Below, piece after piece: positions 4,268-63,914 of a stretch of 64,000 bases of DNA (its first letter is position 1; every line of letters begins with the position of its first letter). The translations under genes and the position numbers were made by a program. Origin of the DNA: Ignavibacteria bacterium UBA2333 (GTDB lineage Bacteria; Bacteroidota; Ignavibacteria; Kapaibacteriales; Kapaibacteriaceae). The stretch covers positions 125,569 to 189,568 of the forward strand of contig DDUR01000061.1 in assembly GCA_002344895.1 (NCBI GenBank). The letters run 5' to 3'. The notes beneath the pieces are model-generated. The model was given only the letters and a program-made list of their open reading frames with translations, was not told the origin of the DNA and made no database searches.

Positions 4268-6472
4268 TCATGGACTCATAAAGACAGAGGATTGGCGTTC
4301 TCCTTGGGCTGACATAAAACTTACAGCATACAGGCCCCTGCGCAGCGGCGAACTGAACGTAATCCGCGTTACGTTGCCATAGCGTTGCATCGTAAACATG
4401 ACACTCTGACCAACATAGTCGACCAAATGCACGTCAGTTACATCCGCAAAGATTTCAAGTGACTGTGAATCTTCCGTGAGTCGTATCACTTCGCTTCGCT
4501 CTGGCGATGTTTCGTATTGTGTTGACGAAACATTGCGGAGGTCATATGTGAACTCCGTTCCATCATCGAAGGTAATCACAATGACCAATGGATGGGGTTT
4601 ACTGGCATATGCCACTCTCGCTCGCTCCATCACTGGCAAACCGATGACGTCATACGAAGATGAACCGTCGATGTCATACGTTGCAACTCGCATTCGTGTC
4701 GGATTTACAGCCCGATCTACATCAAAAATGATGGTCTCATTGGGGCGGCGCAAAACGTCAACGTGAACCTTAAACAGTGGATCAGAGACTACTTTTTCGG
4801 CCTCAAACCGATTGCGTAGAGCACCGAGTGAATCTCGTTCGATAAACGAATAGAATCCATGGGTCACGCCAGTCGGTACTGACCAGTCGATAACAAGACA
4901 TCGTTCGCCCTGTCGAAGGTCGGTATAGAACCCAACGGGCGACATGGCACCATGTACAGGGACAAATTCTCCTTGAGGGCGTTTGATGTACCAGGTAGAT
5001 GTTCCGGGCTTACCATCAACAAGTGTTTTAACGGCCCACATTGAATCGGTAATAAAGAATCCCCCAATAGTATTACCAATGGAGACTGCGAGGGTATCCC
5101 ACGTGGTCCCATAGTTTGTGGAGACAATCGCTGGTTTGTAGAGTGAATACAGCTTGTTGTTGAACCTGCGGAAGTGTTCACATCGAGGGTCATCCGAGAA
5201 CAGTGAGGTAACTACGCCACGGAGGTCAATCGCCAGCGTTTGTGACGATGATGTAAGAATTGCCTGTTCATCGGTGATTGCCAGAATTCGTCCACCATCT
5301 GCAAACTGGGTTGGAACAACAGTCCAGGATTCGAGGCTATCAACATTGGAATGTCGGAGTAATGCCGAAGTTGACTGTGATTCCCATGGTTGATACGGAG
5401 GCGGACATTTGAGGAGTGACACAAGCCGGCCATCCTCGCGTTCCACTCGATCAAGTACCGTAACATTTGATTTGGGCAATGACTGATAGTTCAAAACCCA
5501 TGATTCTTCAATCGTGTTATATCCAAGTCGTCGTATCGACGCATCATTTCCAACAATGAAGATGTATCCCCACGATAACATGACATATCGTGGTGTTACG
5601 GCGCGCGGAATTCTGAGATCACCCCGCAACCATGTGTTCTGACGATATCTGCGATCATTGTCAATGATCAGGGGATACTTCGTATTGTCATAGACCAACG
5701 TTCCGACGGCCGTTCCAGAGTCAGAAACAAACATCTCATCTTGTTCAATACTCACTCCAGTTGGTAGGTAGATTATCTGAATTGTGTCTACTTCATCATT
5801 CATGATACGAATCGTGCCCATCTCTAGGTTTGACGCGAAGGCAACGATGTTGCCACGGATGCCACCTGAGAGGACGGGTACTTCCATCGTAACCGACGTT
5901 GTTTCCATCGACTCTCCCTGAACGACATTCAGTGTACCATCGCGCAGCAAAACGATCGTTCCCTTTGGTCCGTACGAAGCTGCAACGACACTGACACTCC
6001 AAGACGTCGTTTCTACGGCTAACGTCGTGGGATGAACAACCTTTACTTGTTCCGTCGAATAGCAGACATAGCGGCCATAGTTATAGGTGAGTCGATTGGT
6101 GCCTTGAACATCTATCTCCCACTGAATCGACCGCTCAGGCCATCGATAAGCTCTAAGTTTACCGTTACTGCGCAGTACAACAAGGGTGTTCGCCGTGGGC
6201 CATTCTGCGTCGATGACGTCGGTTGGGAAATCAGACGCCCTCCAATACCACGTTTGATCACCAATTAGGTATAACCAATGATTACCTTTCTGGTCGATGG
6301 CTATGTGCCGATTATCATACGATGCAGTGGCAGTTATCGTTGACACCCACGGTGGAGTCAATTGTCGACTTGTGATCTTGGCCTGACTCCATTGCGAGTC
6401 GGCATGAGAAACGAGTACGAACAAGGTCGCTACGATAAACAATGCTAATCTGATACCTCGTCTCATCTCCAT
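4268..6472 (-). CDS. Paralogous secreted BNR/Asp-box-repeat protein with a T9SS C-terminal domain.
   Basis: It has a signal peptide (MEMRRGIRLALFIVATLFVLVSHADSQ) and the Asp-box 'STNYGTTWD'. The C-terminus is ...RRGLYAVSFMSAQGERQSSVFMSP. Several blocks are shared with the neighbour (NHWLYLIGDQTWYWRASDFP against NVWRYSAGERTWSWRPASYP, and LLKCPPPYQP against VMECRPPFIP). Confidence 0.6.
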   Translation of the reverse strand: MEMRRGIRLALFIVATLFVLVSHADSQWSQAKITSRQLTPPWVSTITATASYDNRHIAIDQKGNHWLYLIGDQTWYWRASDFPTDVIDAEWPTANTLVVLRSNGKLRAYRWPERSIQWEIDVQGTNRLTYNYGRYVCYSTEQVKVVHPTTLAVETTSWSVSVVAASYGPKGTIVLLRDGTLNVVQGESMETTSVTMEVPVLSGGIRGNIVAFASNLEMGTIRIMNDEVDTIQIIYLPTGVSIEQDEMFVSDSGTAVGTLVYDNTKYPLIIDNDRRYRQNTWLRGDLRIPRAVTPRYVMLSWGYIFIVGNDASIRRLGYNTIEESWVLNYQSLPKSNVTVLDRVEREDGRLVSLLKCPPPYQPWESQSTSALLRHSNVDSLESWTVVPTQFADGGRILAITDEQAILTSSSQTLAIDLRGVVTSLFSDDPRCEHFRRFNNKLYSLYKPAIVSTNYGTTWDTLAVSIGNTIGGFFITDSMWAVKTLVDGKPGTSTWYIKRPQGEFVPVHGAMSPVGFYTDLRQGERCLVIDWSVPTGVTHGFYSFIERDSLGALRNRFEAEKVVSDPLFKVHVDVLRRPNETIIFDVDRAVNPTRMRVATYDIDGSSSYDVIGLPVMERARVAYASKPHPLVIVITFDDGTEFTYDLRNVSSTQYETSPERSEVIRLTEDSQSLEIFADVTDVHLVDYVGQSVMFTMQRYGNVTRITFSSPLRRGLYAVSFMSAQGERQSSVFMSP

Positions 6473-19441: not shown

Positions 19442-21406
19442 TCACCAGCTTTGCGAGATGGTTGCCCGGAAGATTGTCTCGCGATACGTGCCGCCATACA
19501 CTGCAGGCACTACGCGTTCATCAAAGATATTACGTTCAGCACGTATGTCGATGTTCGCATACTCACCAAGGGCAGCTGTTACTCCGATATGATATCCTGA
19601 ACGAGCACCATAGGTATCATCCAGTGCAAGCATGAGTCCGGCATTACATGATAGTTCATCAAACACGGAGTAAGAACCTCCTATGTCAACGGTTACAATT
19701 CCATTATCCGGCTGGCCAGCGGCCGACTGAACGATGTAACCCAATCCAGCCGTTACGGACAACGGGAAGACGAAGGATAGCGACTGTTGAACGTTCACGG
19801 ACGTTACGCCATAGTCTGAAGCACCCCGAAGTGTTGAGCTGTTCTGTTGGCCATAGGTAAGTGTTGTTCCTGCACCCATTGATCCTATCCGATAATTGTA
19901 TCCGGTGGTGACATTTAACACCGTCGTACGATTGTCGAACCGCAGTAGAGTATCCGTGGCATCATTAATCTGTGCATACGGCGCGTACGACACTCTTAAA
20001 AAAGGCCAGCGTCGGATATTGAGGCCGAGTGTTCCACCGAGTGACGTGATGGTTGTTGTGCTACGTTTCCATGGTATGAGGTTGTCGAGGTCACGTCGGT
20101 AAAACAACCCAACACTCATTTGTCGTTTCCAAAAGGATTGATCTGCACGAACATCATACCGAAGGATGTCTGTTCGCAGGTTGGGTACGGCAAGAGCACG
20201 ATATCCCGGGCCAATACGCCGAATACTTGCGGTAAATCGTGTGCCTGTTTCTCGAATGTTGACAGCTGTTTGTGCGGTGGCAGCCCAGTCGAAGTATGAC
20301 GACGCTGACGAGTCCGAGAGGCCAAGGAGGAATCCTGGAACGTCGTCATCAGAGAGTGTTGGAGCAGTTCTATCAGCAACCGTGAGAGATACTGCTGCTT
20401 CTGCCTGCATCGACCACACACCTTCAATCGGCTCAACACGAAGATCGAGTCCGGTTAACATGTTCTTCTGAGGTGTAAGTGCCGTATTCGAATCAGTCAG
20501 TGCAACACTAACTGGATCGTCCTCAACAAACATTCCGGTGAGAAAGACGTGTGATCCATCACGTCTGCCGACACCTAGTCGAGCCGCATATAGGTGACGT
20601 CCGTAGGCGGAATTGTCAGCCGACGTAAACAGTCCACTGTCAACGCGCACGGAGTCGAACCGCAACAGCGGGCGTTGCATTGTACCACCGGTAACGTGGA
20701 CATAGAACCAACCTGGATTCCATTCGAGCATAGCTCCCTGGATTCGTGCGCCACTCAGTGTGATGGGTGTAAAGGTTGGGAAGACTGTGCCAACGCCAAC
20801 GGTTGGCAATGAAGCCATCACGCGTTCAACGTCTGACATAAACCCCATTGATGACAGAACATCTGTGTAGTCCGATATGTCGCCTTTTGCAACATCACGC
20901 ATTTGTTGGAGCTTTCGATATTCCTCGAGTTCCTTTAATCTTTCCGGATCTACTCGTTGCAGACTATCACGCACCTCATCATACGAATCGAGCAGCTGTC
21001 CGGCCTCCGTACGTGCATAGTCGTTCAGTGCAGCATAAGCACGCTGTGTCACGATACGTCGAACAGCGTCGGGATCCAACGTCAACGAAAAGGCATTGAT
21101 GTTCTGCCGCACATCTCGTTGTTCACTACTCACAAGAACACTTGCTGTGAGAGGAATTCCGTAAAAGAGCAGGCTCGGATTCAGCTCTGCCCTCCACAGA
21201 TCTGGAGGTTTTTCCTGGAACGATCCTTGTCGTGATGCCGACTGTCCGAGTAATCGATAACTCCCCGTGACAATGACAGGTGCTTCGCCACTCCGAGAGC
21301 CAAACACAACAAACGGATTGCGCACAGGACCATTCTGATCCTGTGCCGAGGCCACAGACAGTGCTGCCACGAGAACGAGGGCGAACCCACCAAGTTTTGT
21401 CAACAT
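19442..21406 (-). CDS. Putative outer-membrane beta-barrel protein of unknown family.
   Basis: There is a signal peptide (MLTKLGGFALVLVAALSVASAQ). The C-terminal half shows alternating amphipathic beta-strands and ends in an aromatic residue (...ISQSW). The gene lies 13 nt downstream of the RCC1 gene on the same strand. Confidence 0.5.
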   Translation of the reverse strand: MLTKLGGFALVLVAALSVASAQDQNGPVRNPFVVFGSRSGEAPVIVTGSYRLLGQSASRQGSFQEKPPDLWRAELNPSLLFYGIPLTASVLVSSEQRDVRQNINAFSLTLDPDAVRRIVTQRAYAALNDYARTEAGQLLDSYDEVRDSLQRVDPERLKELEEYRKLQQMRDVAKGDISDYTDVLSSMGFMSDVERVMASLPTVGVGTVFPTFTPITLSGARIQGAMLEWNPGWFYVHVTGGTMQRPLLRFDSVRVDSGLFTSADNSAYGRHLYAARLGVGRRDGSHVFLTGMFVEDDPVSVALTDSNTALTPQKNMLTGLDLRVEPIEGVWSMQAEAAVSLTVADRTAPTLSDDDVPGFLLGLSDSSASSYFDWAATAQTAVNIRETGTRFTASIRRIGPGYRALAVPNLRTDILRYDVRADQSFWKRQMSVGLFYRRDLDNLIPWKRSTTTITSLGGTLGLNIRRWPFLRVSYAPYAQINDATDTLLRFDNRTTVLNVTTGYNYRIGSMGAGTTLTYGQQNSSTLRGASDYGVTSVNVQQSLSFVFPLSVTAGLGYIVQSAAGQPDNGIVTVDIGGSYSVFDELSCNAGLMLALDDTYGARSGYHIGVTAALGEYANIDIRAERNIFDERVVPAVYGGTYRETIFRATISQSW

Positions 21407-21419
21407 TGTGCTGACGGTT

Positions 21420-24323
21420 TTACGGTGTTGCCAATCGCTCAACGCGAATTGGTCCTAGAGGTGGGTCAAGTGGCACAGCGGTAAGATTCGTAATCGGCCC
21501 TTCTCCTAGCTGACCGTATTCGTGTGTTCCCCATGACCATAGTCCACCGTCAGCACGAACGGCCATGGCAAACGTACTTCCTGCGGAAAGGCCAACAACG
21601 GCATCGAGACGTGAGATCTTGACGGGTGTAAAACGGCCCACACGCGATCCGTCACCAAGTTGACCAAGGACGTTATTTCCCCATGCCCAGACGGTTCCTG
21701 TTGAATCGAGAGCCAAGGAGAACGTACCACCAGCGGAGATGGCCTTAATCTTGGGCAACCCTTGCACAACCATCGGCTGATGTCGGTCCTTCGTTGTGCC
21801 ATCTCCAAGCTGACCACTTGCATTTCCGCCCCACGTCCACACTCGCCCATCCTTTCCAAGTGCCATCGTGTGATGATCACCAGCACTCACAGCAATGACG
21901 TCGTACCGAGTAGTTGAAGGGCCCCCAACGGGAGCAAGAACGGGCCACCAGATGGCAGCGGCGGTATCGTCATCAAATCCACATTGGCCATGGTCATTGT
22001 TACCCCATGTGTACACGTTACCTGTCAGTGATAACGCAACGGAGTGTGAATGACCTGCAGCAACCTGACGGATCCCCTTTAACATCCCATGTTTCAGTGG
22101 CTTTGGAATGTGGAGGATTCGTTTGATCTGCGATGCCGTTGCTGGTGTTGAAAGTTCAAAGTTGATGATGGTACCACATTCCCAGGTGCGGTTGTACCCC
22201 CACACATACACGTCACCCTTTTTCGAGAGTGCTAGAGAGTGCCGGCTTCCAGCAGCCACCTGAACTATGTCGGCAAGGCCTAACGACACCGGCTCTGACT
22301 TTTGCTCGCGGCTATCCGTACCAAGTTGCCAGTAGTCGTTATACCCCCACGCCAGGACGTCTCCGGACTGCGTGACCGCTAGCGAATGGTCCATTCCCGA
22401 CGCAAGAGACTGAACGTTTGTTGCTTTGGCAATTTTTGACGGGACCGGTACAACGGCTCCATACGGTTTGGCAACGGATTTACGCAGATTGTCGCCCCAC
22501 CCCCACACAATATTTGGACGCGGCAACATCGCAAGGGAAAGTTGCGATTGTTTTTTCATGATTTCGGGTGACACGTCAACAAGTTGATATTCCGGTCCGT
22601 CTGGTTCATCTTCACTTGATGTTGCGCCCGTGAACCCAGATGTATATTTCTGCATACCTGCGGCTGACGCAAACTTTGACTTAAGCTGCGTTGACGTGCC
22701 GTCGATAACGTTTACCTCATCCAGGATTCCCGAATTCCCCTTCAGTGTTGTAATGTCCTTCGTCAGCTGCTCACGAATCTTGACTGGCAGTTTCTCCGGT
22801 GGCGTTGCGACAAGAGCGTGATTCTCGCCCGCGTCAAGCACCAGCACAGGAAGTTTGACGGTGTCATCCTTCTCTGCATCATGGAAGGTAAAATAGTCGA
22901 CATTGATATGTGCGGATTGTGACGAGTCTCTGATGAGGATGTAGGCGGCACGGTTAAGGTACTTTACAACGTCCCAATCGACGGGTACAAGCCTATCAGA
23001 TGTGCCCCTGCGTTCATCAGCATCGGTAGAGTACAGAACAAGAAACTCTTTTGAGCTTCCAGCCAGTTTGCGTGTGCGCATGGAACCGACCGTGTCCTTG
23101 GCAAGGCGCTCTACAAGAAGCTCAACGTTGGCCATGGGGGAAACTGAGCCACCTACAAGGAAACTCACGACGCTGTGCTTAATCTGAAACTCTTGTGAGA
23201 GCATACTACCCATCGCTGCGTCACCGTCAGCAGCCCCGAGTGACGTGACCCAGTATTTGGCATGATGTCCAAGTGTGCCTAATACGGCGTGTGATTCTTT
23301 TACAGGATCATCAACAAACGATGTCCCGTCAACCGTCCAACACGACAACGTACCTAACTCAAAATCCCAGTTTTCGCCTGGACACGGTATGTCTGCAGCG
23401 AGGTCATCTGTTGCAATAACCGGTGTGCCCCTTCCGCCCCCTCCCGACGTTGTATCTCGTCCGGTGTCATCACGTCCGTCACCGTCATCATCATCACCAC
23501 CATTATCAGCAGATGACGGCATATAGGTAAACGACCATATCTCAGATTCACCGAGTGGGATTCGTGCGCGTGCGCCGTCTTCAAACGCAGCAATTTTCCA
23601 CGCATACCGTTGCTGTGGTTGGAATCTGCGTGCCGAAACGGGATACTGAAGTGTTACGCGTGGCAGACGCTGCTGTTCAAACCATGCAGGATTTCTGGCG
23701 ATGGCGTCGGCAGGCGTCTGTTTTCCGAAAATCTCCACAACGCGAATGTCGTATGAGATACGTTGACCCGGCCCAGGAGGCATACTCGGCATCCATGAGA
23801 ACACGGGTAATAGCTCGGCCACATCTGACTCGTCAGGCGGAGTAATAAGAATCGGGATTGTTAACCTATTTATGATCACAAACTTACAGTCGCGTCCAAG
23901 CACCTGATCATTCTCTGCGAGGATTACCTCGCAGCAGATCGTGTAGTCGCCTGTAGGGACACTTCCCGTTTGTAATAGTGCGTCGCGATATCGAGGATTG
24001 GATTCATCAACGGTCACAGGCTGGACATCATTTCCGGTAACACGTGTACGTCCGGGCTGCAGCGTAAACACCTTCGTACGCGCGTCTGCGATGATACCAT
24101 CAGGTATTGACGTTTCTTCTGCGGTACCATGGAGATAGACCTCCAGGGGACGTCCAGACTGATTGTCGAGATCAATTTTCCAGAGATCACCAATTCGTAA
24201 TTGATTTGGTGGTGGCTGGGTTAATCGAATGGTAACGCGCTCCTGGCTCCGTGACGATTGAATCGTCAAGAGTAGGAATAGGACGGCTATCAGTGCGCCC
24301 CCGCGACTGTGTCTTCTCCTCAT
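21420..24323 (-). CDS. Secreted protein with a C-terminal RCC1 (regulator of chromosome condensation / ATS1-like) repeat beta-propeller.
   Basis: At least six repeats match the RCC1 pattern, including AGSRHSLALSKKGDVYVWGYN..., AGHSHSVALSLTGNVYTWGNNDHGQCG, AGDHHTMALGKDGRVWTWGGNASGQLGDG, AGGTFSLALDSTGTVWAWGNNVLGQLGDG and AGSTFAMAVRADGGLWSWGTHEYGQLGEG. There is an N-terminal signal peptide (MRRRHSRGGALIAVLFLLLTIQSSRSQ) and an Asp/Gly-rich linker. Confidence 0.75.
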   Translation of the reverse strand: MRRRHSRGGALIAVLFLLLTIQSSRSQERVTIRLTQPPPNQLRIGDLWKIDLDNQSGRPLEVYLHGTAEETSIPDGIIADARTKVFTLQPGRTRVTGNDVQPVTVDESNPRYRDALLQTGSVPTGDYTICCEVILAENDQVLGRDCKFVIINRLTIPILITPPDESDVAELLPVFSWMPSMPPGPGQRISYDIRVVEIFGKQTPADAIARNPAWFEQQRLPRVTLQYPVSARRFQPQQRYAWKIAAFEDGARARIPLGESEIWSFTYMPSSADNGGDDDDGDGRDDTGRDTTSGGGGRGTPVIATDDLAADIPCPGENWDFELGTLSCWTVDGTSFVDDPVKESHAVLGTLGHHAKYWVTSLGAADGDAAMGSMLSQEFQIKHSVVSFLVGGSVSPMANVELLVERLAKDTVGSMRTRKLAGSSKEFLVLYSTDADERRGTSDRLVPVDWDVVKYLNRAAYILIRDSSQSAHINVDYFTFHDAEKDDTVKLPVLVLDAGENHALVATPPEKLPVKIREQLTKDITTLKGNSGILDEVNVIDGTSTQLKSKFASAAGMQKYTSGFTGATSSEDEPDGPEYQLVDVSPEIMKKQSQLSLAMLPRPNIVWGWGDNLRKSVAKPYGAVVPVPSKIAKATNVQSLASGMDHSLAVTQSGDVLAWGYNDYWQLGTDSREQKSEPVSLGLADIVQVAAGSRHSLALSKKGDVYVWGYNRTWECGTIINFELSTPATASQIKRILHIPKPLKHGMLKGIRQVAAGHSHSVALSLTGNVYTWGNNDHGQCGFDDDTAAAIWWPVLAPVGGPSTTRYDVIAVSAGDHHTMALGKDGRVWTWGGNASGQLGDGTTKDRHQPMVVQGLPKIKAISAGGTFSLALDSTGTVWAWGNNVLGQLGDGSRVGRFTPVKISRLDAVVGLSAGSTFAMAVRADGGLWSWGTHEYGQLGEGPITNLTAVPLDPPLGPIRVERLATP

Positions 24324-24621
24324 GTTCGGCCTCTCGAACGCCGTGAACCTTGTTTTGAACCGTTCCGAACATACCACGGAAATCGTTCCGTGCAACATCA
24401 CGGAACATCATCAGACAATGTTTGGCCTTGTTTGGCTCACATCTGGCAACAACGCTGTCGATGTGATGAACTGTCCGATATGCCGTAGTTCAGTTTGGCG
24501 CACCCGACGATCTCACGAAGGAAAATGTTCCCTCCACATGGAACAGAAATCATTCTGAGTTGTACGAGTCGATTCGTGGCGTATGTTCGCCACAGGTTCA
24601 TGTAACAGGGAGGAGTTGGCG
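24324..24621. promoter_or_regulatory. Divergent intergenic/promoter region between the RCC1 operon and the giant-gene operon, containing operator-like inverted repeats.
   Basis: A perfect 7-bp inverted repeat with a 4-bp spacer, CACGGAA-ATCG-TTCCGTG, lies at 24375–24392. A palindrome GAAC-C-GTTC lies at 24357–24365, and further GGAAC/GTTCC half-sites follow. GGAGG lies 9 nt upstream of the ATG at 24622. Confidence 0.4.
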
Positions 24622-27600
24622 ATGAAGAGGATCGCCCTCAACGTTGGCGCAATTTCGCGGCGACGCATACCTCGCATTTCGGCTGATGCACGCTCTGCGG
24701 TTGTTGCATTGGTTGGTGCCGAGAGTGTCGTCCTGAGCAGACGGCGCGCCCTAGGCGTGGCCGGTGCGCTTGGTATTCTTGCAGCTCCTGCGGCTCGTGC
24801 CGTAGAGAGTGCACTTTCAGATTCCTATCGAATTGTACGCCGTGGACAGCGTATCGCCATCGTCGTTGCCGACGTTGAGCGGTGGGTTCTCGACCCGTCC
24901 ATGTTCGACGGTAGTCCCGAGACGTTCTATTCGGAGTCCGACGATGGTATTCGCCTGGAACTCCGCCATGCACGATATCCCGGCACATCGATCTCGGCCG
25001 ATATTGTTGCCGAGATTTCACGCGGCACAACACCCGTCGTGCGATTTACGGGTCCGCTATTTGCTGCCCCTTCGTCCGCACCGTTACTTGCATGGCTGCT
25101 CGAACGTGAGAGATACGAAACAACGTGCGCCGTTCGTGCACTGAAGGGATTGCAGTTTGCGGCAGTACTACCCAACGCATCAACGATACGATTTCGGCCT
25201 ACGTGGTCCTTTACCGTCGATGGTCGTGCTGACGTTACGATTGACTCGTTACAGCTACCGTGTGACCGACTTGATGTCCAACTGTTAAAGGCACAACGGT
25301 CGCGTCCATCGTCTCTACTTTCCGGCTCTGCATCGTCTGGTACGTTCCTTCGTGCTGTTCGCGGTACATCTGCGTGGAACATTCCCCTTCAGTTTTCTGT
25401 GAGCCCATCGGCAGAACTTGAGGTTGATGCCGATGCGTTTGACACGTGTTCACTTGAAGTACGCAGTGATGGTCGATTTGCAGGTTTGCTGGAAGGGGGC
25501 CGAGAAGGGGCAAGTAGATTCCAACTCATTCATCATGATGGCCATGTTGGATTCCGCGACGTTCGATATGCATGGACATCGGCAAATGGTGATCGTCATG
25601 AGGCCTTTGTTGCACGATATGCGTCAACACCATCGTGGATTCGCGCACATGGTATTGCCTTTGAGATAAGTGATCGCGAAGGTTTACCTGCATGTGAACT
25701 TGTACGACGTAATGGAGTTGTAGAGCGGTTTGTTGTTGCTCCGGCACTGAACCGCTATCACATCTCGGTTGCAAACGCAGCAACGGAACCAACGGCGGTT
25801 CCCGCCGCATCACAACTTGCCTTCCTGTGTTCGGCTGTTGCACCATCTGCGCTACCAAAGCCACACTTCGCTATGACAGCCGTTCGGCTGGAACCGGCAC
25901 AACAGTTTTCGCAGCAAACACAGATTGATGTCTTCAAAAAGGATACAAAACCGAATATTAAGGTTGGCAAACAATCTGGACGGTGGAGCAAAAAGCCAAT
26001 TGTGTTTGCGACAAATCCGCGCGTTACTGTTATCCGTCCTGAAGACCTGCTCGTCCTGACGTTTGAGTTCCAGAACATTACACTCAACAAGGCTGCGGGC
26101 ACGTTTGCGGCGAGTGGAACAAACTCACGATTAATCGTCCACTTCCAGCCACAGCACATTGCTGAGCGAGCGTTCTTCTATGTTACGGACGACGACACGC
26201 CGAAGGATAAGGTAAATGCCTCTGAAGCACCGGCCAGTGCGCCGAAGAATCAGTCAGGGAACGAGCCTCGTCTTGACCCACCGATTGAGGCCATCATGGC
26301 TCATTCGTCGCGACTTGTCTTTTCCCTTCCGAACGGACACTCCGGTAAGTTTTCTATTGAGGGATTACTCGACTGGTCAAAGCTGAAAATGGTTGTCTCG
26401 CCATCAGCCAAACCGCCTGATGCCGAGTTTGTATTGAGTGTGCTGGCAAAGTCTGCCGTCTCAAAGTTTGGTGGCATTACTGCACCTAAGGATCCCAAGC
26501 CGGGTGGATCGTTCCTCGCCAAAAAGGGCAAAACATCTCAGACAAAGACGTATGCTCTCAGTGGTGGAATAGCGTCGAAGGTAAAATCTTCCACGAAGGC
26601 AGTTGTTGAATCGAATGCCGACATTGCCACCACGATCTCGCCTCAGTTACAGGCAGAGTTAGCAGCAGCTATACTTGAAAAACCGCCGATTCGTGAACCG
26701 AAAGATGACGAAACGGCAATCGAGTATCCGTATCGGCTGTTTATGTCGCCGAACAAGTATGCGGCCTGGGCACACAGCACAAAGGCAAAAATTGACGACG
26801 AACGGCGCGCCGAACTTTGGCATACACGACTCGGCGTACTGCATGCCAGCGGCGAAGTCAACGAAAATGCTGCCTACTTCCGGACGATGCGGGCAATATG
26901 GACGCCCGACATGAAGATTGCCTACAACGTAACGTCGGCAGCTCGTGAGCGTCCGTTCCGTACATCGATTAACAGACGTGACCGGCGCGAACTTGTTCAG
27001 CTCATGAGTGACTATTCACTCAAGGACACGGAAGTAAAGCCGGTTGATGTAAAACGGTTTATGATGACATCACTCGGCGCTTGGGCAGACATGACAGGTG
27101 TCTGGGATCCAAAGGACGGCGAGCTTGACGTAGAACAATGGATTCAGCGCGGTACTCAGGGACGTGATCACTTTGTGCGTATCTGTTACAAAGGTTATCT
27201 CTTCCCGTTTGGACATCGTGCGACACTTGTGAAGGAAACGGAGCGCAAGTTCCGACGGACACCTCGTGGTGACATGGCTGCCTACCTCATGCAGCGTATG
27301 TACATCATCCTGCGTCAACCCGTACGTGACTATCCTGCAGCTGGACTTGCTGGTATGCAGTTCCAGGGTCGGGAGTTCCCCTTCCGTCGAATCACAATTA
27401 CAACGAAGATCACGCCAAATCTTTACGATCCTGGGCTTACGGCCTTGGATGTAGCGAACATGGGGCCAAACTCATTCTGGCCTCAGTTTGACGCAAACGG
27501 TCCGGTTGACGTGAAGTGGTCGTGTATTGGCACTGATTGGGATAATAACGAAGTACACTTCAGTGCACCTCTGGCCTTTATCGCCAACACGGCCGCTATT

Positions 27601-29727
27601 GGAGACAAGTGCCAATCGTGGATTAACAACACGTATAAAAACGAAACAGCACGGCGTACGCTGGAAATGGGCGGTCAACAAATCGCTTATGCAGCATCCG
27701 TCAAACTTGGCGACACGTCACTCCCGACAGGCAAGTTCACACTCCACGGTTACTACGCTCCTGAAGCCGAACAGTACACACCGCGCTTTTTCCCTCGTAT
27801 GGAGAAGTCGAAGGTTCGTATTGAGAAGGTTGCAGAGTTAACGGGCAACAGTGGTGAACGCGATGTTGAGTTCTTTACGAACTACCTCAAACATGCCTTC
27901 GAAAAGGGCCAGTCGTTCTCGAAGGGTGTTGTACCTGCTGCAGATCAGGTAAAAAATCCATCGCAGATCTTCGTTCGTCTTGTTGACAAGCTTGGATTGG
28001 ACTTTGGATCTCAAAGCGACAAGGCAGGCGGTCTTGCCGCACCAAGTCTTGACATCAGTGGCCTGTCCAGACTTATGGGACCGATCGCCGGTGATCTTAA
28101 GACGGACATTGAAAAAACTGCAGCGGCTATCGGAAACTTCGATCCGATGCAGTACTTCGAAAGTCTGTTAAGTGCAAAGATCCTGGGTGATATCACCTTA
28201 AAGGATGTACTCGACTTTGTGATGGACGTCCTGAACAACCTTGACAAGATGCCGTCACTCGACAAGAAGGACGACTTCGGTGTAAAGGATGCCATCAGTA
28301 AGGCCATGCCGAAAAACGAGCTCCTTCAGGCTCTCACGGACAAGATAGCGGAGACGGACCTCGTGAAGTCGGCGGCCGAAGAGCTCAACGCCGTTGCTGG
28401 TGAGCTCGACAAGGACGTAAAGGACGCACGCGACGCCCTGCTCGCAGAAATTGCAGATCTCAAGTCGGAAATCAACGAAGCCAAGAACAAGATCCAGTCG
28501 GACGTTGAAGAAGTAAAGAAGGCCATTGAAGACCGCGTTAACGAATGGAAAAAACGACTCGAGGACAAGGCAAACGAACTCAAGAGTGAGATTGAGAAGG
28601 CCATTAAGCCGCTTGTTGATGCTGGCAACGAAGCCTACAAGAAATACGAGCAAGCACAACAGGCGCTGAATGCGCTTAAAAAGGGCCTTAACCTTTCGTA
28701 TGAATGGCAAACCGAGATCAAGTCGTCACCAGGCAACATTCTTGTTCCTCTATATCCAGGGGCAACAACAAAGGAAAAGAAAGCGATACTCTATCTCAAA
28801 GCGTCGTTCACGAAAAAACTCGACCTTGAGCCGCCTGAGATCTTGATCTATGGATCACTCTCGAACTTTGTTATCAACTTGATTGGTGATGGAGCTGCCC
28901 AGTTCCTCATCATCAAGTTTAATCGACTTGCTGTATCCGCCAAGATTGGCCAGAAGCCGGATGTTGACCCCGACATTGAGGCCGTAGAGTTTGCTGGGCC
29001 ACTGGCCTTTGTCAACAAGCTCAAGGACCTCATCCCAACCGGCGGTTCAGCTGGAGGTGTTGGATTCTCCTTTGACCTCAACGTCAACTCAGCCGGCATC
29101 ACGGCCTCACTGACCATCGGCCTCCCGAACGTCACGGTAGGTGTGTTCTCGCTCATGAACATGTCCTTCCTCATGAGCTTGACGATTCCGTTTGATGGCC
29201 GGAGTTTTTCGTCATACTTCGCCTTCTGTACACGCGAGAATCCATTCCGGCTCACCATCATGATGTTTGGTGGTGGTGGATTCTTTGGCATCGAGATTCA
29301 ACCGTCGGGCGTGCGTATGCTCGAGGCGGCGTTTGAGTTTGGCGGCAACTTCGCCTTTGATTGTGGTGTTGCCTCTGGTGGCGCAAGTGTTATGGCTGGC
29401 GTCTACTACAAACTCGAGCGCAAAGAAATCGATGGCAAGGAAGTTGAACAGTCGGAACTCACCGGATACTTCCGTCTGACCGGCAACCTCAGCATCCTCG
29501 GCATCATTCGCGTTAGCCTACTTTTTGAACTCAAGCTCACATGGCTCAGCACCGGTAAGGTCTTCGGTACTGCCACGATTGAAGTGGAAATCGAGATCCT
29601 CTTCATCAGCTTCTCCGTCGGTGTTACCGTTGAGCGTCAGCTGAAGGGTTCTGACGGAGATCCAACCTTCCACGACATGTTGCCTCAGGCATCAATGTGG
29701 GACACATACTGCAACGCCTTCGCATAA
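24622..29727 (+). CDS. Giant uncharacterised protein of about 1700 aa with a twin-arginine-like N-terminal signal, a central coiled coil and a Gly-rich C-terminal module. I recognise no catalytic motif.
   Basis: It is one uninterrupted ORF. I placed the start at Met-Lys-Arg with GGAGG 9 nt upstream; an alternative ATG lies at 24583. The Tat-like motif is LSRRRALGVAGALGILAAPAARA|VES. The coiled coil is KDAISKAMPKNELLQALTDKIAETDL...EIEKAIKPLVDAGNEAYKKYEQAQQALNALKKG. The C-terminus is ...FGGGGFFGIEIQP...FEFGGNFAFDCGVASGGASVMAGVYYK...TATIEVEIEILFISFSVGVTV. Confidence 0.6.
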   Translation: MKRIALNVGAISRRRIPRISADARSAVVALVGAESVVLSRRRALGVAGALGILAAPAARAVESALSDSYRIVRRGQRIAIVVADVERWVLDPSMFDGSPETFYSESDDGIRLELRHARYPGTSISADIVAEISRGTTPVVRFTGPLFAAPSSAPLLAWLLERERYETTCAVRALKGLQFAAVLPNASTIRFRPTWSFTVDGRADVTIDSLQLPCDRLDVQLLKAQRSRPSSLLSGSASSGTFLRAVRGTSAWNIPLQFSVSPSAELEVDADAFDTCSLEVRSDGRFAGLLEGGREGASRFQLIHHDGHVGFRDVRYAWTSANGDRHEAFVARYASTPSWIRAHGIAFEISDREGLPACELVRRNGVVERFVVAPALNRYHISVANAATEPTAVPAASQLAFLCSAVAPSALPKPHFAMTAVRLEPAQQFSQQTQIDVFKKDTKPNIKVGKQSGRWSKKPIVFATNPRVTVIRPEDLLVLTFEFQNITLNKAAGTFAASGTNSRLIVHFQPQHIAERAFFYVTDDDTPKDKVNASEAPASAPKNQSGNEPRLDPPIEAIMAHSSRLVFSLPNGHSGKFSIEGLLDWSKLKMVVSPSAKPPDAEFVLSVLAKSAVSKFGGITAPKDPKPGGSFLAKKGKTSQTKTYALSGGIASKVKSSTKAVVESNADIATTISPQLQAELAAAILEKPPIREPKDDETAIEYPYRLFMSPNKYAAWAHSTKAKIDDERRAELWHTRLGVLHASGEVNENAAYFRTMRAIWTPDMKIAYNVTSAARERPFRTSINRRDRRELVQLMSDYSLKDTEVKPVDVKRFMMTSLGAWADMTGVWDPKDGELDVEQWIQRGTQGRDHFVRICYKGYLFPFGHRATLVKETERKFRRTPRGDMAAYLMQRMYIILRQPVRDYPAAGLAGMQFQGREFPFRRITITTKITPNLYDPGLTALDVANMGPNSFWPQFDANGPVDVKWSCIGTDWDNNEVHFSAPLAFIANTAAIGDKCQSWINNTYKNETARRTLEMGGQQIAYAASVKLGDTSLPTGKFTLHGYYAPEAEQYTPRFFPRMEKSKVRIEKVAELTGNSGERDVEFFTNYLKHAFEKGQSFSKGVVPAADQVKNPSQIFVRLVDKLGLDFGSQSDKAGGLAAPSLDISGLSRLMGPIAGDLKTDIEKTAAAIGNFDPMQYFESLLSAKILGDITLKDVLDFVMDVLNNLDKMPSLDKKDDFGVKDAISKAMPKNELLQALTDKIAETDLVKSAAEELNAVAGELDKDVKDARDALLAEIADLKSEINEAKNKIQSDVEEVKKAIEDRVNEWKKRLEDKANELKSEIEKAIKPLVDAGNEAYKKYEQAQQALNALKKGLNLSYEWQTEIKSSPGNILVPLYPGATTKEKKAILYLKASFTKKLDLEPPEILIYGSLSNFVINLIGDGAAQFLIIKFNRLAVSAKIGQKPDVDPDIEAVEFAGPLAFVNKLKDLIPTGGSAGGVGFSFDLNVNSAGITASLTIGLPNVTVGVFSLMNMSFLMSLTIPFDGRSFSSYFAFCTRENPFRLTIMMFGGGGFFGIEIQPSGVRMLEAAFEFGGNFAFDCGVASGGASVMAGVYYKLERKEIDGKEVEQSELTGYFRLTGNLSILGIIRVSLLFELKLTWLSTGKVFGTATIEVEIEILFISFSVGVTVERQLKGSDGDPTFHDMLPQASMWDTYCNAFA

Positions 29728-29742
29728 GGTCGGGACAATACC

Positions 29743-32700
29743 ATGGCGACTCAGGAACTACAATGGATGGCGCTTCCCTACGATGTGGAGAAGCGGGACG
29801 GCGCAACGATGTTACGTGTGGCCGTAATGTGTCTTCCAAAACTCCAGGACACTACAACAGCCGATAATACCCTTGCAGAGTATCCGGACTTTACGGACTG
29901 GCCACTCACGCTGCAGGGTATACTTATTGGTCTGAACATCGGTGGAACAAACATCCCACCGACGGACCTCACACCTGTTGATGACGCACCGGACTCGGAG
30001 ACATGGAAGGCCATCTTCCGCCCGACAACTCTCGTGCGCCCGTTTGAGTACAAGCCGTTTACAGATTTTCGGATTTTTTCCTATCCGGTTGGACTTGTAC
30101 AAAAGACAACGGCAGACCTGCTGACGTCCCTTGCAAAGTCCTATGTGAATGTTGAACCGCTTGTACCTCCAATGGGCAACAATGTTGGAGGTATCAACAA
30201 CGACAAACTTTCCTCCGTCGGCGCACAGGATCCTGCCCTTCAACAGCTTTCGCAGATTCTGTTACCCTACATCGAAACAGAGAAAGATGAGATTCAGCTC
30301 AGGTCGTTAAAGCAGCGCTGGGAAACCGAAGGCCGAAACGCAACACTCATGATGATGCGCCAGGAGACGGCTCCAAAACAACAGCGTGATGTGCGGAAGG
30401 GGCCCGTAGAGGTTCCGAGTAATCCTGAGACAATGCTTGAACGACCTGTTTCTCTGGCAACACCCGTTGGCCAGTTACAAATGGTTGAGATCTATCACAC
30501 ACCAAGGAACTATGCTGTTGACGGTGTTGTGAATGGTAAAAAATTACCGCGTGTACAGCGCGTAAAACCGTCACGTCCAAAGTTCGACTTCCATCAGGTT
30601 GTGAGCGTCATGCGTGATTATCCCGTGATGCTTCGCCGTCTTGGCCTTGTTCGTCACTTTGAGTTTAAGATGCCCGATGGCATGTCGGCAAACGGAAAAA
30701 TCCGCGTCAATGTAACGTTCCCTTCACCAAAGGTTGGAACAAAGAACGTTGTACCGTGGACAGCATATCGACTTACAACGTCCGGTGATGCTGCCTACTG
30801 GCAGTTCCTGCCACGTCCTGATAGTGATTCGGAGATTGTTGGGCCGGTACTGTGCCTTAACGACACGACGAATTACGACGTTGTTCAGATTGATGTTGAT
30901 ACTTCAGCAATGAAGACACTCAACTTCACACGCGCTGTTGTTGGTCGACTTAAAAAGACAATGAATACGCGGGATCAGAAGGCCGATGCTTCTCCACCTG
31001 CCGTTCGCGGTACCGGACTACAACTTATTCGCGTTAATCGCGGGTTAAAGCTGGCAAAGTCCCTCATCCGAAATGCAAAAAATTATAACCGTCTTGTTGC
31101 GAATGAAGAGGTAACACTCTACGCAGATGATGTGCTGCGCGGTTATCGAATCGACGTCTTTGATGCGAAGGATAATGCGTGGCGCTCCCTCATGCGTCGG
31201 AATCTTACGTTAAAGTTTCCGGAGGCCGCAACACCAGCTCTTCGTAACACCGGCGTCACCGTCAACGACGAAGAGGGAGTGCTATCGTTTGCAGCCACAC
31301 GACCTGTTTCTCCCGACCCCAATGCCATGCGCAGTCTGTATGCACATGAAACCATTGCTCAGTGGGAGAATTGGTCACTCGTTGCTCCGCGTATCGGCTC
31401 GTTTATTGGTGCCGAAGACGAGCTTCAACCAGATCAACCAACACAGTCATCACCGAACGACTTTGAGTATCGTGTTGACTCTACAGCGTCGATTGTTGCA
31501 AAGTCGCTGCCACGTCTACGATATGGAAGGAAGTACAGACTACGTGCTCGTATCGTTGATGTAGCTGGTAATGGCCCTGCACTCGACGAACTCAATCCGC
31601 TCGACTTCACATGTGCAACGGAACTCATAACGTATCTGCGGTGGGATCCAATTGTATCGCCAACAATCGCTCTCAGGAATCACCCGATCGAAGGTGAATC
31701 TCTCGAGCGTATGGTGATTCGCACGTTTAATGAATCCGACGACGAAACCGTTTTGCCCCCTATCGAAGCCCCTTCCCTTCGTCATGTCTTCCCACCAATG
31801 GCAAGTGTGGAAACGTGTGAGCGTCATTCCTTGTTCGACGATGAGGTTTCTGGCTCGATGAAGTCGGACATGTACGACATCATCGTAAAAAAGACAGGCA
31901 AGACTGGACAACCCGCAGACGTACCCACACAGTGGTATGAGCGTTCTGCAAGTGGTGGACTTGTTCCACTTGGAGCCATCAACACAACTCCTCCCGTTGC
32001 AAAACAGCAGAATGCGATTCGATATCCCATTGCACAGGTAGACAAGGCCGTAAGCCCATACCTGCCTGATCCAATGTCGAGGGCCGTAACGTTCCAGAGT
32101 GTACCGGGCATGAATGCCAACGAGTTGCTGGAAATCTCGATGAGTGGTGTTTCAACTGCTGCCATCACATCGGCCACAGGTGTCGTAACAGTTGCGTTTG
32201 ATGGACTTGCCAATTGGCCAGACGTTGAGAGTATTCTTCTCAAGCTCGATGAAGGAACAGAGAAACCGTCATGGGATGCGGGAACAAAGACGCTGACCAT
32301 CCGCCTGCCAAAGGGCGAACAGGCATGGATTCGATTCTCATCATCATTGGGAACTGATCAGACAGAGGCCGACACACGTTCGGCACTTCATGGTCACATG
32401 TCAACGCTCAACAAGGCAAACGTTACCGGTGGAGCACTCAAAGCTGCCGTACGCGGACTTTCCTGGCTCATCACACCTGGCCGCACACTACACCTCGTCC
32501 ACGCAACACAAAAGCCTCTCAAGAAGCCAAAGGTGGTGAAAGGGGCTGTAAAGGGGCGATGGTTTGATTCAACCAATGCGCGCATTCATCTTACAGAGTT
32601 GTACTGTGATGCACGGTCAACACAGAAGGTAGACATCTCGGCACATTGGGAAATGGACACCGACGATGTTTCGAAACCGGCACCGGAAAAGCTTCAGCAG

Positions 32701-34029
32701 AAAGCACACGTTGGTGATCGTCATGCCGAGAATCGGACAGACGATACAATCGACTTTGACAAAACGCAGGAGTTTGGCGATACGAAGTATCGTCGGATTG
32801 AATACTTACCAACAGCAACTACTCGATTCCGCGAGTTTTTGCCTTTGATACGCAAAAACACCAACGACAAGATTACACGGCTCGGACAAGGGATCACACT
32901 CGATATCCTTTCATCAAAACGACCGGATGGTGTTGATCTGCTCTACGTCGTTCCGTCCTTCCGTTGGGTTGAAGAAAGCAAAACATTTGCCAATGGCCTC
33001 GTAAAAAGCACCCGTAAGGGTGGTGGCCTTCGTGTCTACATGAACAGGCCTTGGTACTCATCTGGTAACGGCGAACTTCTCGGCGTGATTCTCTACTCGT
33101 CAAAAAAATTCTCAACGGGACAGAATGCACCACCAGCCGACAATGGAGTGGGTGGTGGTTCGGGTAACATCACGTTTCAAAAGGGCATAAAGGACTTCTC
33201 GAAATCGAAGGTTGCTACGAATATCGACCTGGCGTTAAACAACCGACTGGATATTCCTGAGCAGCTTCAGCCCTACGTTACGCAGTGGGGCCTGGATCCG
33301 ATCTGGCTTTCTGCACCTACTCCGGCAGATGCTGCTCCTCGTATCCAGAACTTCCGTGTGCCCGACATTGTCCTTGACAGTGTAAGCATTGAAGAGGTGC
33401 CCGCTTCCCAACGATTTAGCGTCATAGGTTACGAACCAAAGTTTGACGCAGAACGTAAACTTTGGTATTGTGACATTGAGGTTGATCCGGCTGAGAGTTA
33501 TTGGCCGTTTCTTCGCCTTGCTCTTTGCAGGCTACAGCCGAAGTCGGTTGCTGACTCACAAACAGGGCGTGACGTCTACGTTTCGCGCATTGTCCAGTCT
33601 GAGTTCTGTCAGCTCGCTCCAGATCGTGAGGCTACGGCCCGTGTTGACGATGGTGACGCTACGGTCACCGTACAGGTGGTCGGCCATACGTATCGTATGA
33701 ACACGGCAGGACATCAGGGCTCCGATATCGAAGTCACCATTGAGCGCCGTAAACCATCAGCAGGTGGTGAAGATCTTGGTTGGGAACCTGTCGTAACACA
33801 ACGTATTGACCGACTCCACGGAGCAAACATGTGGGGTGGTACGATTCCGGTTCAGGGCGGAGTAAATTCTGCTCAACATCGTGTTGTCATCAAGGAATAC
33901 GAACAGTTCTTTGTTGATCCAGAGAAGAATCGTGATTCAAACCTTGGTGACCCCGTTACTGGTGAAGGCGCTATGACGTTCTCACTCGACAAGCGTATTG
34001 TTTACGCTGACATCTTACCACTCTTCTAG
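29743..34029 (+). CDS. Giant uncharacterised protein of 1428 aa with no recognisable domain or signal peptide, coupled to the upstream giant gene.
   Basis: It is one uninterrupted ORF starting 13 nt after the upstream stop. I see no Walker A, HExxH, GxSxG, YD/Rhs or T9SS CTD motifs. Coding-like codon periodicity is maintained throughout. Confidence 0.6.
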   Translation: MATQELQWMALPYDVEKRDGATMLRVAVMCLPKLQDTTTADNTLAEYPDFTDWPLTLQGILIGLNIGGTNIPPTDLTPVDDAPDSETWKAIFRPTTLVRPFEYKPFTDFRIFSYPVGLVQKTTADLLTSLAKSYVNVEPLVPPMGNNVGGINNDKLSSVGAQDPALQQLSQILLPYIETEKDEIQLRSLKQRWETEGRNATLMMMRQETAPKQQRDVRKGPVEVPSNPETMLERPVSLATPVGQLQMVEIYHTPRNYAVDGVVNGKKLPRVQRVKPSRPKFDFHQVVSVMRDYPVMLRRLGLVRHFEFKMPDGMSANGKIRVNVTFPSPKVGTKNVVPWTAYRLTTSGDAAYWQFLPRPDSDSEIVGPVLCLNDTTNYDVVQIDVDTSAMKTLNFTRAVVGRLKKTMNTRDQKADASPPAVRGTGLQLIRVNRGLKLAKSLIRNAKNYNRLVANEEVTLYADDVLRGYRIDVFDAKDNAWRSLMRRNLTLKFPEAATPALRNTGVTVNDEEGVLSFAATRPVSPDPNAMRSLYAHETIAQWENWSLVAPRIGSFIGAEDELQPDQPTQSSPNDFEYRVDSTASIVAKSLPRLRYGRKYRLRARIVDVAGNGPALDELNPLDFTCATELITYLRWDPIVSPTIALRNHPIEGESLERMVIRTFNESDDETVLPPIEAPSLRHVFPPMASVETCERHSLFDDEVSGSMKSDMYDIIVKKTGKTGQPADVPTQWYERSASGGLVPLGAINTTPPVAKQQNAIRYPIAQVDKAVSPYLPDPMSRAVTFQSVPGMNANELLEISMSGVSTAAITSATGVVTVAFDGLANWPDVESILLKLDEGTEKPSWDAGTKTLTIRLPKGEQAWIRFSSSLGTDQTEADTRSALHGHMSTLNKANVTGGALKAAVRGLSWLITPGRTLHLVHATQKPLKKPKVVKGAVKGRWFDSTNARIHLTELYCDARSTQKVDISAHWEMDTDDVSKPAPEKLQQKAHVGDRHAENRTDDTIDFDKTQEFGDTKYRRIEYLPTATTRFREFLPLIRKNTNDKITRLGQGITLDILSSKRPDGVDLLYVVPSFRWVEESKTFANGLVKSTRKGGGLRVYMNRPWYSSGNGELLGVILYSSKKFSTGQNAPPADNGVGGGSGNITFQKGIKDFSKSKVATNIDLALNNRLDIPEQLQPYVTQWGLDPIWLSAPTPADAAPRIQNFRVPDIVLDSVSIEEVPASQRFSVIGYEPKFDAERKLWYCDIEVDPAESYWPFLRLALCRLQPKSVADSQTGRDVYVSRIVQSEFCQLAPDREATARVDDGDATVTVQVVGHTYRMNTAGHQGSDIEVTIERRKPSAGGEDLGWEPVVTQRIDRLHGANMWGGTIPVQGGVNSAQHRVVIKEYEQFFVDPEKNRDSNLGDPVTGEGAMTFSLDKRIVYADILPLF

Positions 34030-34054
34030 ATCTACAACAACTGCACACCCGATC

Positions 34055-35053
34055 ATGAAGATCTTATCACGCATTATCGTCGGTCTCGTCGTCGTGATCG
34101 CAGTCGCGGGAATCATTGGCATCTTCCTACCTCGCGACATCGTTGTTGTGCGCGAGCGAACCATACCGTATCCGATATCCGACGTACATCAAGCACTTCA
34201 GGACCCACGATTCTTTAACGTGTGGTCGCCCTGGATGGAAATGGATACGGCTATGAAGATCTCCTACTTCGGGACGATTGGAGAAGGTGCTGGATATACG
34301 TGGGAGAGCACGGAGGGTAGTCTTGGCACGGGGACATGGAAGATTGAAAAAGTAGAACCACTCAAAACCGTCAAGGTGAGCCTTACAAGTGAGTCCATGG
34401 GTGCAAGTATGGCCACCTTTACTGTCCGCCGCGAAGACAGGGGCACACATGTTTCGTGGAAACTTGAAAGCGACATGGGCTGGCTTCCCTGGTGGCGTTG
34501 GATGGGACTCCTTATGGATTCATGGGTTGGAGCTGATTTTGAGAAGGGACTCGCCAAACTTGAGGTATCAATGAAGGATCGCCCACAACCACGCACGGAG
34601 AACTTCCGTCTCATCAACCTTCCACCAACTCACATCTTGTCGATTCGCCACACTGTTGACGTCCAGACACTTGGTGCCACATTTGCTCGCGACTACACAG
34701 ACATCGCCGCCGCTATCCAGTCGCAAAACGGCACCATGGCAGGAATTCCTGGAGCAATTTATCACACATGGTCGGCCACAACAACGGATGTTGAGCCCTA
34801 CATCCCCGTGACGGCGGCCTTGCCATCAACGGGACGAGTTGTGGCGTCATTACGACCAGCCATGAAGGCAGTCGTTGTTGACTACTACGGTCCCTACGAA
34901 GGAAGTGAAAAGGCCCACGAATTGATGGACGGTTACCTACGTCAAAACGGCCATACCGTTGTAGGTGCTCCCTGGGAAGAGTACGTTACAGACCCGACTG
35001 TGGAAAAAGATCCTATGAAGGTTCTGACACGGATCTACTATCCCGTGAAGTAA
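34055..35053 (+). CDS. Fusion protein of an SRPBCC (START/Bet-v1-like polyketide-cyclase fold) domain and a GyrI-like small-molecule-binding domain, with an N-terminal transmembrane anchor.
   Basis: The hydrophobic N-terminus is MKILSRIIVGLVVVIAVAGIIGIF. The following region (…WSPWMEMDTAMKISY…GTWKIEKVEP…) is SRPBCC-like. The C-terminal half (…YIPVTAALP…KAVVVDYYGPYE…) resembles a GyrI-like effector domain. I chose Met 34055 because it follows the upstream stop. Confidence 0.5.
   Translation: MKILSRIIVGLVVVIAVAGIIGIFLPRDIVVVRERTIPYPISDVHQALQDPRFFNVWSPWMEMDTAMKISYFGTIGEGAGYTWESTEGSLGTGTWKIEKVEPLKTVKVSLTSESMGASMATFTVRREDRGTHVSWKLESDMGWLPWWRWMGLLMDSWVGADFEKGLAKLEVSMKDRPQPRTENFRLINLPPTHILSIRHTVDVQTLGATFARDYTDIAAAIQSQNGTMAGIPGAIYHTWSATTTDVEPYIPVTAALPSTGRVVASLRPAMKAVVVDYYGPYEGSEKAHELMDGYLRQNGHTVVGAPWEEYVTDPTVEKDPMKVLTRIYYPVK

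Positions 35054-55913: not shown

Positions 55914-63914
<8,001 letters not shown>

Follow-up and report, generated by a model that had tools for sequence, protein, structure and literature searches.

Hitchhiking complexes of the twin-arginine translocation (Tat) pathway, among them the small and large subunits of hydrogenases and DmsAB, offer a parallel for a pair of giant proteins, here called A and B. Both are encoded in a stretch of 64,000 nucleotides (the window) from Ignavibacteria bacterium UBA2333, a member of the Kapaibacteriaceae (assembly GCA_002344895.1, contig DDUR01000061.1, positions 125,569 to 189,568 of the forward strand). As in these complexes, a long twin-arginine signal is present on one partner, A, and absent from the tightly co-encoded B; unlike in known hitchhiking substrates, cofactor-binding domains were not detected in A or B with Pfam and NCBIfam, and the signal is missing in about half of the family. 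Other described proteins resemble parts of A. Its layout, with a large N-terminal part, a helical segment and a C-terminal beta domain, mirrors that of type Va autotransporters. The combination of amphipathic beta-sheets with amphipathic helices is shared with microsomal triglyceride transfer protein (MTP), lipovitellin and the TULIP-like OrfX/P47 proteins. A preliminary description of the locus had singled out the C-terminal part of A as a coiled-coil stalk followed by a Gly-rich beta module, and compared it with membrane-inserting or oligomerising modules of secreted effectors. To judge from the homologues collected here, it had missed the main point, namely that the beta module marks a huge unannotated family whose members are paired with the next gene. 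On the evidence of sequence, A and B form a conserved two-gene module that has so far escaped description, with B as the obligate partner.

Protein A is encoded on the forward strand by an open reading frame (ORF) of 1714 codons (24583..29727). Translation probably begins at the ATG at 24622 (M14), which would give a protein of 1701 residues, because this is the length of the NCBI entry for the same protein, a 'hypothetical protein' from a metagenome-assembled genome (MAG) of the Bacteroidota; homologues likewise begin at the equivalent of M14. Close relatives, 53–59% identical to A, were found in Ignavibacteria- and Kapabacteria-like MAGs. The first 470 residues are optional in the family, and the domain that they contain (aa 85–470, 24835..25992, forward strand) is found in some lineages only, Bacillus among them. 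The family-wide core begins at about aa 470–480 with a small conserved domain carrying the motifs RPEDLL…PQHIAE (aa 480–610, 26020..26412, forward strand). Towards the C-terminus follow an amphipathic helical insert, K/E-rich in this clade (aa 1244–1367, 28312..28683, forward strand), and a signature domain predicted to be all-beta and barrel-like (aa 1369–1714, 28687..29724, forward strand). The region to which attention had been drawn (nt 28290–29700) corresponds to residues 1236–1706, the C-terminal third of A. The four strings quoted from it were all located in this ORF: the helical string at aa 1275–1342 (nt 28405–28608), FGGGGFFGIEIQP at aa 1562–1574 (nt 29266–29304), the FEFGG…VYYK string at aa 1584–1610 and the TATIEVEI… string at aa 1663–1683.

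Of all regions of A, the beta domain is the best conserved. Its identity is 81% in close homologues, where the core reaches 64%, and 37–44% in distant ones. The first interpretation was to be refuted by poor conservation of the C-terminal module or by its assignment to a common soluble fold with no membrane or oligomer interface; conservation is high, and structural comparison of the models placed the domain in no such fold. In both AlphaFold models, about 20 antiparallel strands are predicted in aa 1369–1714, with a predicted local distance difference test (pLDDT) of ~85–95, and the 1015-residue model reaches a pTM of 0.64 and a mean pLDDT of 83. The predicted shape is a strongly curved, barrel-like antiparallel beta-meander, in which the last seven strands are modelled with 12–20 residues each and turns of 2–3 residues, and the chain closes with two short helices (the last ~20 residues in both models). 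In the C-terminal half of the domain, I/V/L/F lie on one face of the strands and S/T/G/E/K on the other. Gly-aromatic pairs are frequent and glycine is enriched (10.7% against 7.0%). The Gly-rich and beta character attributed to the C-terminal module is thereby borne out, and its size had been underestimated, the domain measuring ~345 residues and not 150.

Several positions of the domain are under strong constraint. The glycines G1564, G1565, G1587, G1599, G1606 and G1634 are invariant, the first two being part of the FGGGGFFG motif (aa 1562–1569, 29266..29289, forward strand). The GVASGG motif (aa 1595–1600, 29365..29382, forward strand) lies at a constant distance of 26 residues past GGGGFF. 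The free C-terminus is also constrained (…W-x-x-Y-C-x-A-F-A): the chain finishes with AFA in 77 of 88 homologues, the usual ending being …YCxAFA, and in the window it reads YCNAFA (29707..29724, forward strand). Two cysteines of the module, C1549 and C1710 (29227–29229 and 29710–29712), covary, with both present in 58 homologues, both absent in 9 and a mixed state in 19 (odds ratio 10.9, Fisher p = 5e-4). This hints at a disulfide or a metal site formed by the two; a disulfide would fit an extracytoplasmic location. A rough mean-field direct coupling analysis of ~240 sequences recovered adjacent hairpins in the expected registers; its effective number of sequences is ~175 and gap and indel artefacts dominate, and the signal between first and last strand, which would bear on closure of the barrel, is unreliable.

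An exhaustive search with the beta domain, covering representatives of clusters at 50% identity, returned 3155 relatives at E ≤ 1e-3, including 2449 at E ≤ 1e-10; a word-indexed search with the same domain alone gave 370 proteins. Among the best 150 of the 3155 relatives, the domain nearly always occupies a C-terminal or near-C-terminal position, in proteins of mostly 1000–1800 aa. Annotated members of the A–B family are named only 'hypothetical protein'. For the retrieval of genomic loci, a DNA pattern was built on the two motifs (GGGGFF-N78-GVASG). It matched in at least 120 species genomes of GTDB, with true homologues only, and 122 loci (the 120 pattern matches and two further loci) were checked by tblastn; all 122 contain an A homologue. 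The family spans more than 10 phyla of monoderm and diderm bacteria. Hosts include Actinomycetota (Streptomyces, Actinoplanes, Mycobacterium, Knoellia, Embleya), Pseudomonadota (Asticcacaulis, Achromobacter, Comamonas, Pelomonas, Litoreibacter, Rhizobium), Chloroflexota, Cyanobacteria, Acidobacteriota, Bacteroidota, Myxococcota, Verrucomicrobiota, Gemmatimonadota and Armatimonadota, and also Bacillota. Copies on megaplasmids or chromids occur in the Bacillus cereus group, Rhizobium, Cupriavidus metallidurans CH34 and Streptomyces. From phage genomes the pair is essentially absent: tblastn of 50,697 phage records gave no match, and the two-motif pattern matched once in 2.9 million viral contigs.

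Some members of the family deserve mention in their own right. A–B pairs occur in two archaeal-binned contigs (L090 and L104, MAGs of Methanomassiliicoccaceae and Nitrososphaeraceae), which may reflect transfer or binning contamination; taxon labels of MAG contigs, archaeal ones above all, may carry binning errors. On plasmid pRlX2 of Rhizobium ruizarguesonis (L124, 13200–13560), the A homologue is frameshifted within the helical linker and annotated as two ORFs, and a similar interruption is seen in the ENA contig L002 (10001–10017). Many 'core only' proteins of ~900 aa and 'module only' proteins of ~300–600 aa come from long-read metagenome contigs and may be frameshift artefacts or pseudogenes. 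The idea that the beta module forms a separate gene in some lineages was considered as well; since the apparent splits are at least partly frameshifts in the helical linker, they are not used as evidence here.

Protein B (1428 aa, 29743..34029, forward strand) starts 15 nt past the stop of A, across a gap without a terminator-like site; in Streptomyces, the stop of A and the start of B overlap. By tblastn, 108 of the 122 loci have a B homologue directly downstream of A and on its strand, and most of the remaining 14 end just past A. The N-terminus of B is conserved (…ILWTALPNG…LRLSVFVSPRL), and none of the B N-termini examined has a signal peptide, that of the window included. Further motifs of B, strongly conserved, are GSLPRLRFGxxYRxRARxVDLAGN, GGGLRVYLxRPWFSSGxGELLGV and YxPFVRLALxRxQP. 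No conserved third partner gene was found across phyla, the neighbours being lineage-specific.

Neither protein could be assigned to a described family. For A, searches of Pfam, NCBIfam, PADLOC and PHROGs gave coiled-coil or low-complexity noise only. B has no match in these resources or in the PDB, and Pfam on 26 B homologues likewise returned noise. Extending the Pfam search to 59 module sequences and 5 unusually long members brought up only coiled-coil and low-complexity matches. In PADLOC, the weak coiled-coil matches of A are to the tails of ZorA, LeoA and LmuB, with none for B; PHROGs gave coiled-coil noise only; the PDB, searched by sequence and by profile, gave nothing for A or B. Pfam and NCBIfam revealed no domain typical of defence proteins, such as a nuclease or an NTPase. 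Literature searches, whether thematic or based on motif strings, turned up nothing of relevance.

A Tat-type signal, SRRRALGVAGALGILAAPAARA, is found at aa 52–73 of A (24736..24801, forward strand). By motif reading it has the elements of the Tat consensus, with a twin arginine (SRRRAL…AxA), a weak h-region that is Gly/Ala-rich and mildly hydrophobic, and an AxA site. Tat-type motifs are present in 32–47 of ~83–126 full-length homologues depending on stringency (~37–45%), a few of them with a lipobox. No Sec-type signal was seen in A or its relatives, whose N-termini are of Tat type or lack a signal. Because about half of the A members lack a signal, export is not a general rule for the family. 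In many lineages the twin arginine is preceded by a conserved extension of ~37 residues (aa 14–51 of A, window positions 24622–24735, forward strand) with the consensus M-x-R-x-x-L-N-L-x-A-L-R…P-R-I-P, which is unusually long for the n-region of a Tat signal. A proofreading chaperone might bind to this extension.

The segment between core and beta domain turned out to differ from its first portrayal. It is rich in K, E and A (K 15.5% and E 14.7%, against 6% each across the whole of A), and its hydrophobic periodicity peaks at 3.6–3.67 residues, a value reached by 0 to 1 of 2000 shuffles (p < 0.0005 for the peak at 3.6–3.65). No heptad period is present, the power at 3.5 residues being at shuffle level (p 0.41–0.96). 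The segment is confirmed as a long amphipathic helix, and the heptad-like coiled coil is not upheld. One AlphaFold model (model 1) gives it as a single helix of ~90 residues, the other and better one (model 2) as four helices packed as in a FAT or vinculin-tail bundle; confidence is 56–84 and the two models disagree on its shape, a compact four-helix bundle being the probable form. The spacer between core and beta module is bimodal in 127 full-length homologues: it measures less than 40 aa and has no helix in 53 of them (~42%), for example in Bacillus, is 120–160 aa long in 54, and exceeds 200 aa in a few. As the insert is missing from this share of homologues and its sequence is not conserved in the others, it is best regarded as an optional, lineage-variable insert, apparently dispensable across the family, and not as a conserved stalk. 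Of the two-part anatomy first proposed, the succession of a helical segment and a Gly-rich amphipathic beta module therefore stands, and the 'long helical stalk' falls.

All database matches of the segment, among them Apolipoprotein, ZorA, SMC and tape-measure families, score well under threshold and reflect composition. The match to Apolipoprotein A1/A4/E (PF01442) scores 25.9 bits, below the cut-off of 90, and only 1 of 59 module-containing sequences matches this family in Pfam. The insert also differs from the four-helix bundles of the FAT, vinculin-tail and apolipophorin-III type, scoring far below the family cut-offs and being optional and non-conserved. A role as a periplasm-spanning spacer tied to the Tat signal was considered and rejected, the presence of the insert and of the signal being uncorrelated in A homologues (Fisher p = 1.0).

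The reading of the beta domain that we favour, tentatively and with less than even confidence, is that of a pre-folded docking or assembly element of the A–B system, with its hydrophobic face on a protein partner and, in lineages with a signal, with A and B exported together through the Tat pathway. The core of A or the co-encoded B would cover this face, and the domain would not act as a constitutive outer-membrane barrel. The complex would assemble in the cytoplasm of the source organism, and A and B would leave the cell interior via Tat on the twin-arginine signal of A, with the signal-less B as hitchhiker. We infer here the surface that the hydrophobic face meets, the formation of an A–B complex, its export by Tat and the biological role of the pair. 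Several observations weigh against this proposal. All structural neighbours of the beta domain are transmembrane beta-barrels, and the polar face of its strands is rich in small residues, as are the lumens of barrels. Profile comparison of the beta module with B revealed no homology (hhalign probability 0.1). The members without a signal, about half of the family, include the Bacillus copy and a plasmid-borne Streptomyces copy. Size is a further difficulty: A (~180 kDa) and B (~160 kDa) are, to our knowledge, each much larger than any known Tat substrate, and we know of none that approaches the ~340 kDa of an A–B complex.

Whether the module instead inserts into a membrane, as a self-inserting anchor or pore comparable to autotransporters or secreted pore-forming effectors, in which the helical segment would serve as a plug or linker, was also weighed; this comes close to the first interpretation, and we consider it unlikely, though with an appreciable chance of being right. 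Strands of 12–20 residues with an I/V/L/F face and a small or polar face suit such a barrel, as do the autotransporter-like layout of A, a conserved aromatic residue near its C-terminus and export signals in many members, a few with a lipobox. Four of the five features of outer-membrane barrels and autotransporters that were looked for are nevertheless lacking, despite the similar architecture. A has no sequence or profile similarity to type Va autotransporters, TpsB/Omp85, BcsC or PgaA, with no autotransporter, Omp85 or porin match for A in Pfam or NCBIfam and none for the 59 modules in Pfam. Its signal is Tat-type, hence of a pathway for folded proteins, or absent, and never Sec-type. The module is also found in monoderms, namely on Bacillus cereus-group plasmids and in Streptomyces, Mycobacterium, Actinoplanes and Chloroflexota. 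Whereas outer-membrane barrels end with an aromatic residue in their last strand, A ends, according to the models, in short helices with no terminal strand (…AFA, with Phe penultimate). The predicted ~20 strands in 345 residues contrast with the 12 strands of autotransporters, and A, unlike outer-membrane barrels, is always accompanied by a second giant partner gene. Given the monoderm hosts, the Tat-type signals and the helical C-terminus without a beta-signal strand, a barrel or autotransporter inserted by the beta-barrel assembly machinery (BAM) is unlikely as a general mechanism; the hosts and the absence of Sec-type signals already argue against a classical outer-membrane barrel. The membrane-inserting or oligomerising module of a secreted effector that had been suggested at the outset is a possible reading and no more.

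The docking and assembly proposal also has to be set against readings that place A elsewhere or give it other ligands. That A and B form a cytoplasmic conflict or defence module, directed for instance at phages or plasmids, with the beta domain as effector or oligomerisation domain and a Tat-like motif that is irrelevant or clade-specific, is improbable in our estimation. The patchy distribution over more than 10 phyla, megaplasmids and chromids included, would accord with it, as would the signal-less half of the family and neighbourhoods that are variable and at times contain restriction–modification, toxin–antitoxin, insertion sequence or other conflict genes. The noise-level PADLOC results and the lack of nuclease, NTPase or typical defence domains speak against it, and so do the clear Tat signals of many members, some with a lipobox, the stable and syntenic position of the pair between housekeeping genes in the clade of the window, and the covarying cysteines, which hint at an oxidising extracytoplasmic site. 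Slim chances are given to a module binding lipids or another hydrophobic cargo in a cavity or on a surface formed by beta-sheet and helices, in the manner of MTP, lipovitellin, apoB or the TULIP-type OrfX/P47. An extensive hydrophobic face on the beta module and an apolipoprotein-type periodicity of 3.6–3.67 in the helical insert, with weak Apolipoprotein and ApoLp-III matches, would suit it, and the top Foldseek ranks of the 1015-residue model are indeed MTP, P47, lipovitellin and OrfX1–OrfX3. These Foldseek matches are however not significant (E 3.6e-3 to 0.1, probability 0.02–0.11, TM 0.05–0.10), A has no sequence similarity to these proteins, the Apolipoprotein score is far short of its 90-bit cut-off, and the helical part is absent in 42% of the family. 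Very improbable, and largely refuted, is an extended stalk in which a conserved oligomeric coiled coil would hold the beta module off the body of A: the single ~90-residue helix of model 1 and weak matches to many coiled-coil families agree with it, against the periodicity and the dispensability described above.

In the window, the genes upstream of A–B encode a Mur ligase and SurA-like peptidyl-prolyl isomerases, and those downstream the housekeeping proteins Era, BamD, RuvB, ProRS and LepA. Upstream of A and divergent from it lie a gene for a 993-aa protein with RCC1-like beta-propeller repeats (21420–24401, reverse strand) and one for an unannotated 666-aa protein (19442–21442, reverse strand). 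In the clade of the window, this block is fixed between the SurA-like genes and Era/BamD, with the 635–666-aa and RCC1-like genes divergent. Both genes are kept beside A–B in two related loci (L001 and L131); in a third (L130), the RCC1-like gene is present and the contig stops inside the next gene. In the examined loci of other phyla, neither gene stands beside A–B. Directly past B, a fusion of an SRPBCC/polyketide-cyclase-like domain with a GyrI-like small-molecule-binding domain is encoded (33998–35053, forward strand). This fusion is kept in L001 and L131 (with only the cyclase-like domain on record for L131) and is absent past B in L130 and in other phyla. Elsewhere in the window, a reprolysin-like (M12B) metallopeptidase domain is joined to Laminin_G_3/concanavalin-like domains in a protein of 1641 aa (55914–60839, reverse strand), and two adjacent ORFs of 709 and 734 aa (2135–4264 and 4268–6472, both reverse strand) have no Pfam family at E ≤ 1e-5. 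In Microlunatus parietis (L127, 1–9547), the A–B pair lies beside a divergent cluster of four genes, encoding a Tubulin_2 protein (1194 aa), an unknown protein of 898 aa, a SaeA-like Fn3 protein and a protein with a GAP1 domain; the four may constitute a conflict or cytoskeletal system in their own right.

Each A–B pair represents ~9.4 kb of coding sequence and is kept intact across phyla. This investment and the intact pairing suggest that a real and probably important function goes unrecognised. A broader interpretation, possible yet doubtful, is that A–B is an undescribed, ancient and horizontally mobile two-protein machine, exported in a folded state by Tat in many lineages, and providing a BAM-independent barrel or assembly module outside the cytoplasm. 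Culturable hosts of the pair include Cupriavidus metallidurans CH34, Bacillus cereus-group strains, Streptomyces, Achromobacter xylosoxidans and Asticcacaulis biprosthecium. If the interpretation is right, such a machine would be spread over the majority of the major bacterial phyla, monoderm and diderm alike, and perhaps over some archaea; a new C-terminal barrel-like beta domain would be its hallmark, and A or the A–B complex would be by far the largest Tat cargo known. If A is a Tat substrate, the known size limits of this pathway would be extended, and if its barrel works without an outer membrane, it would represent a new solution to beta-barrel biogenesis.

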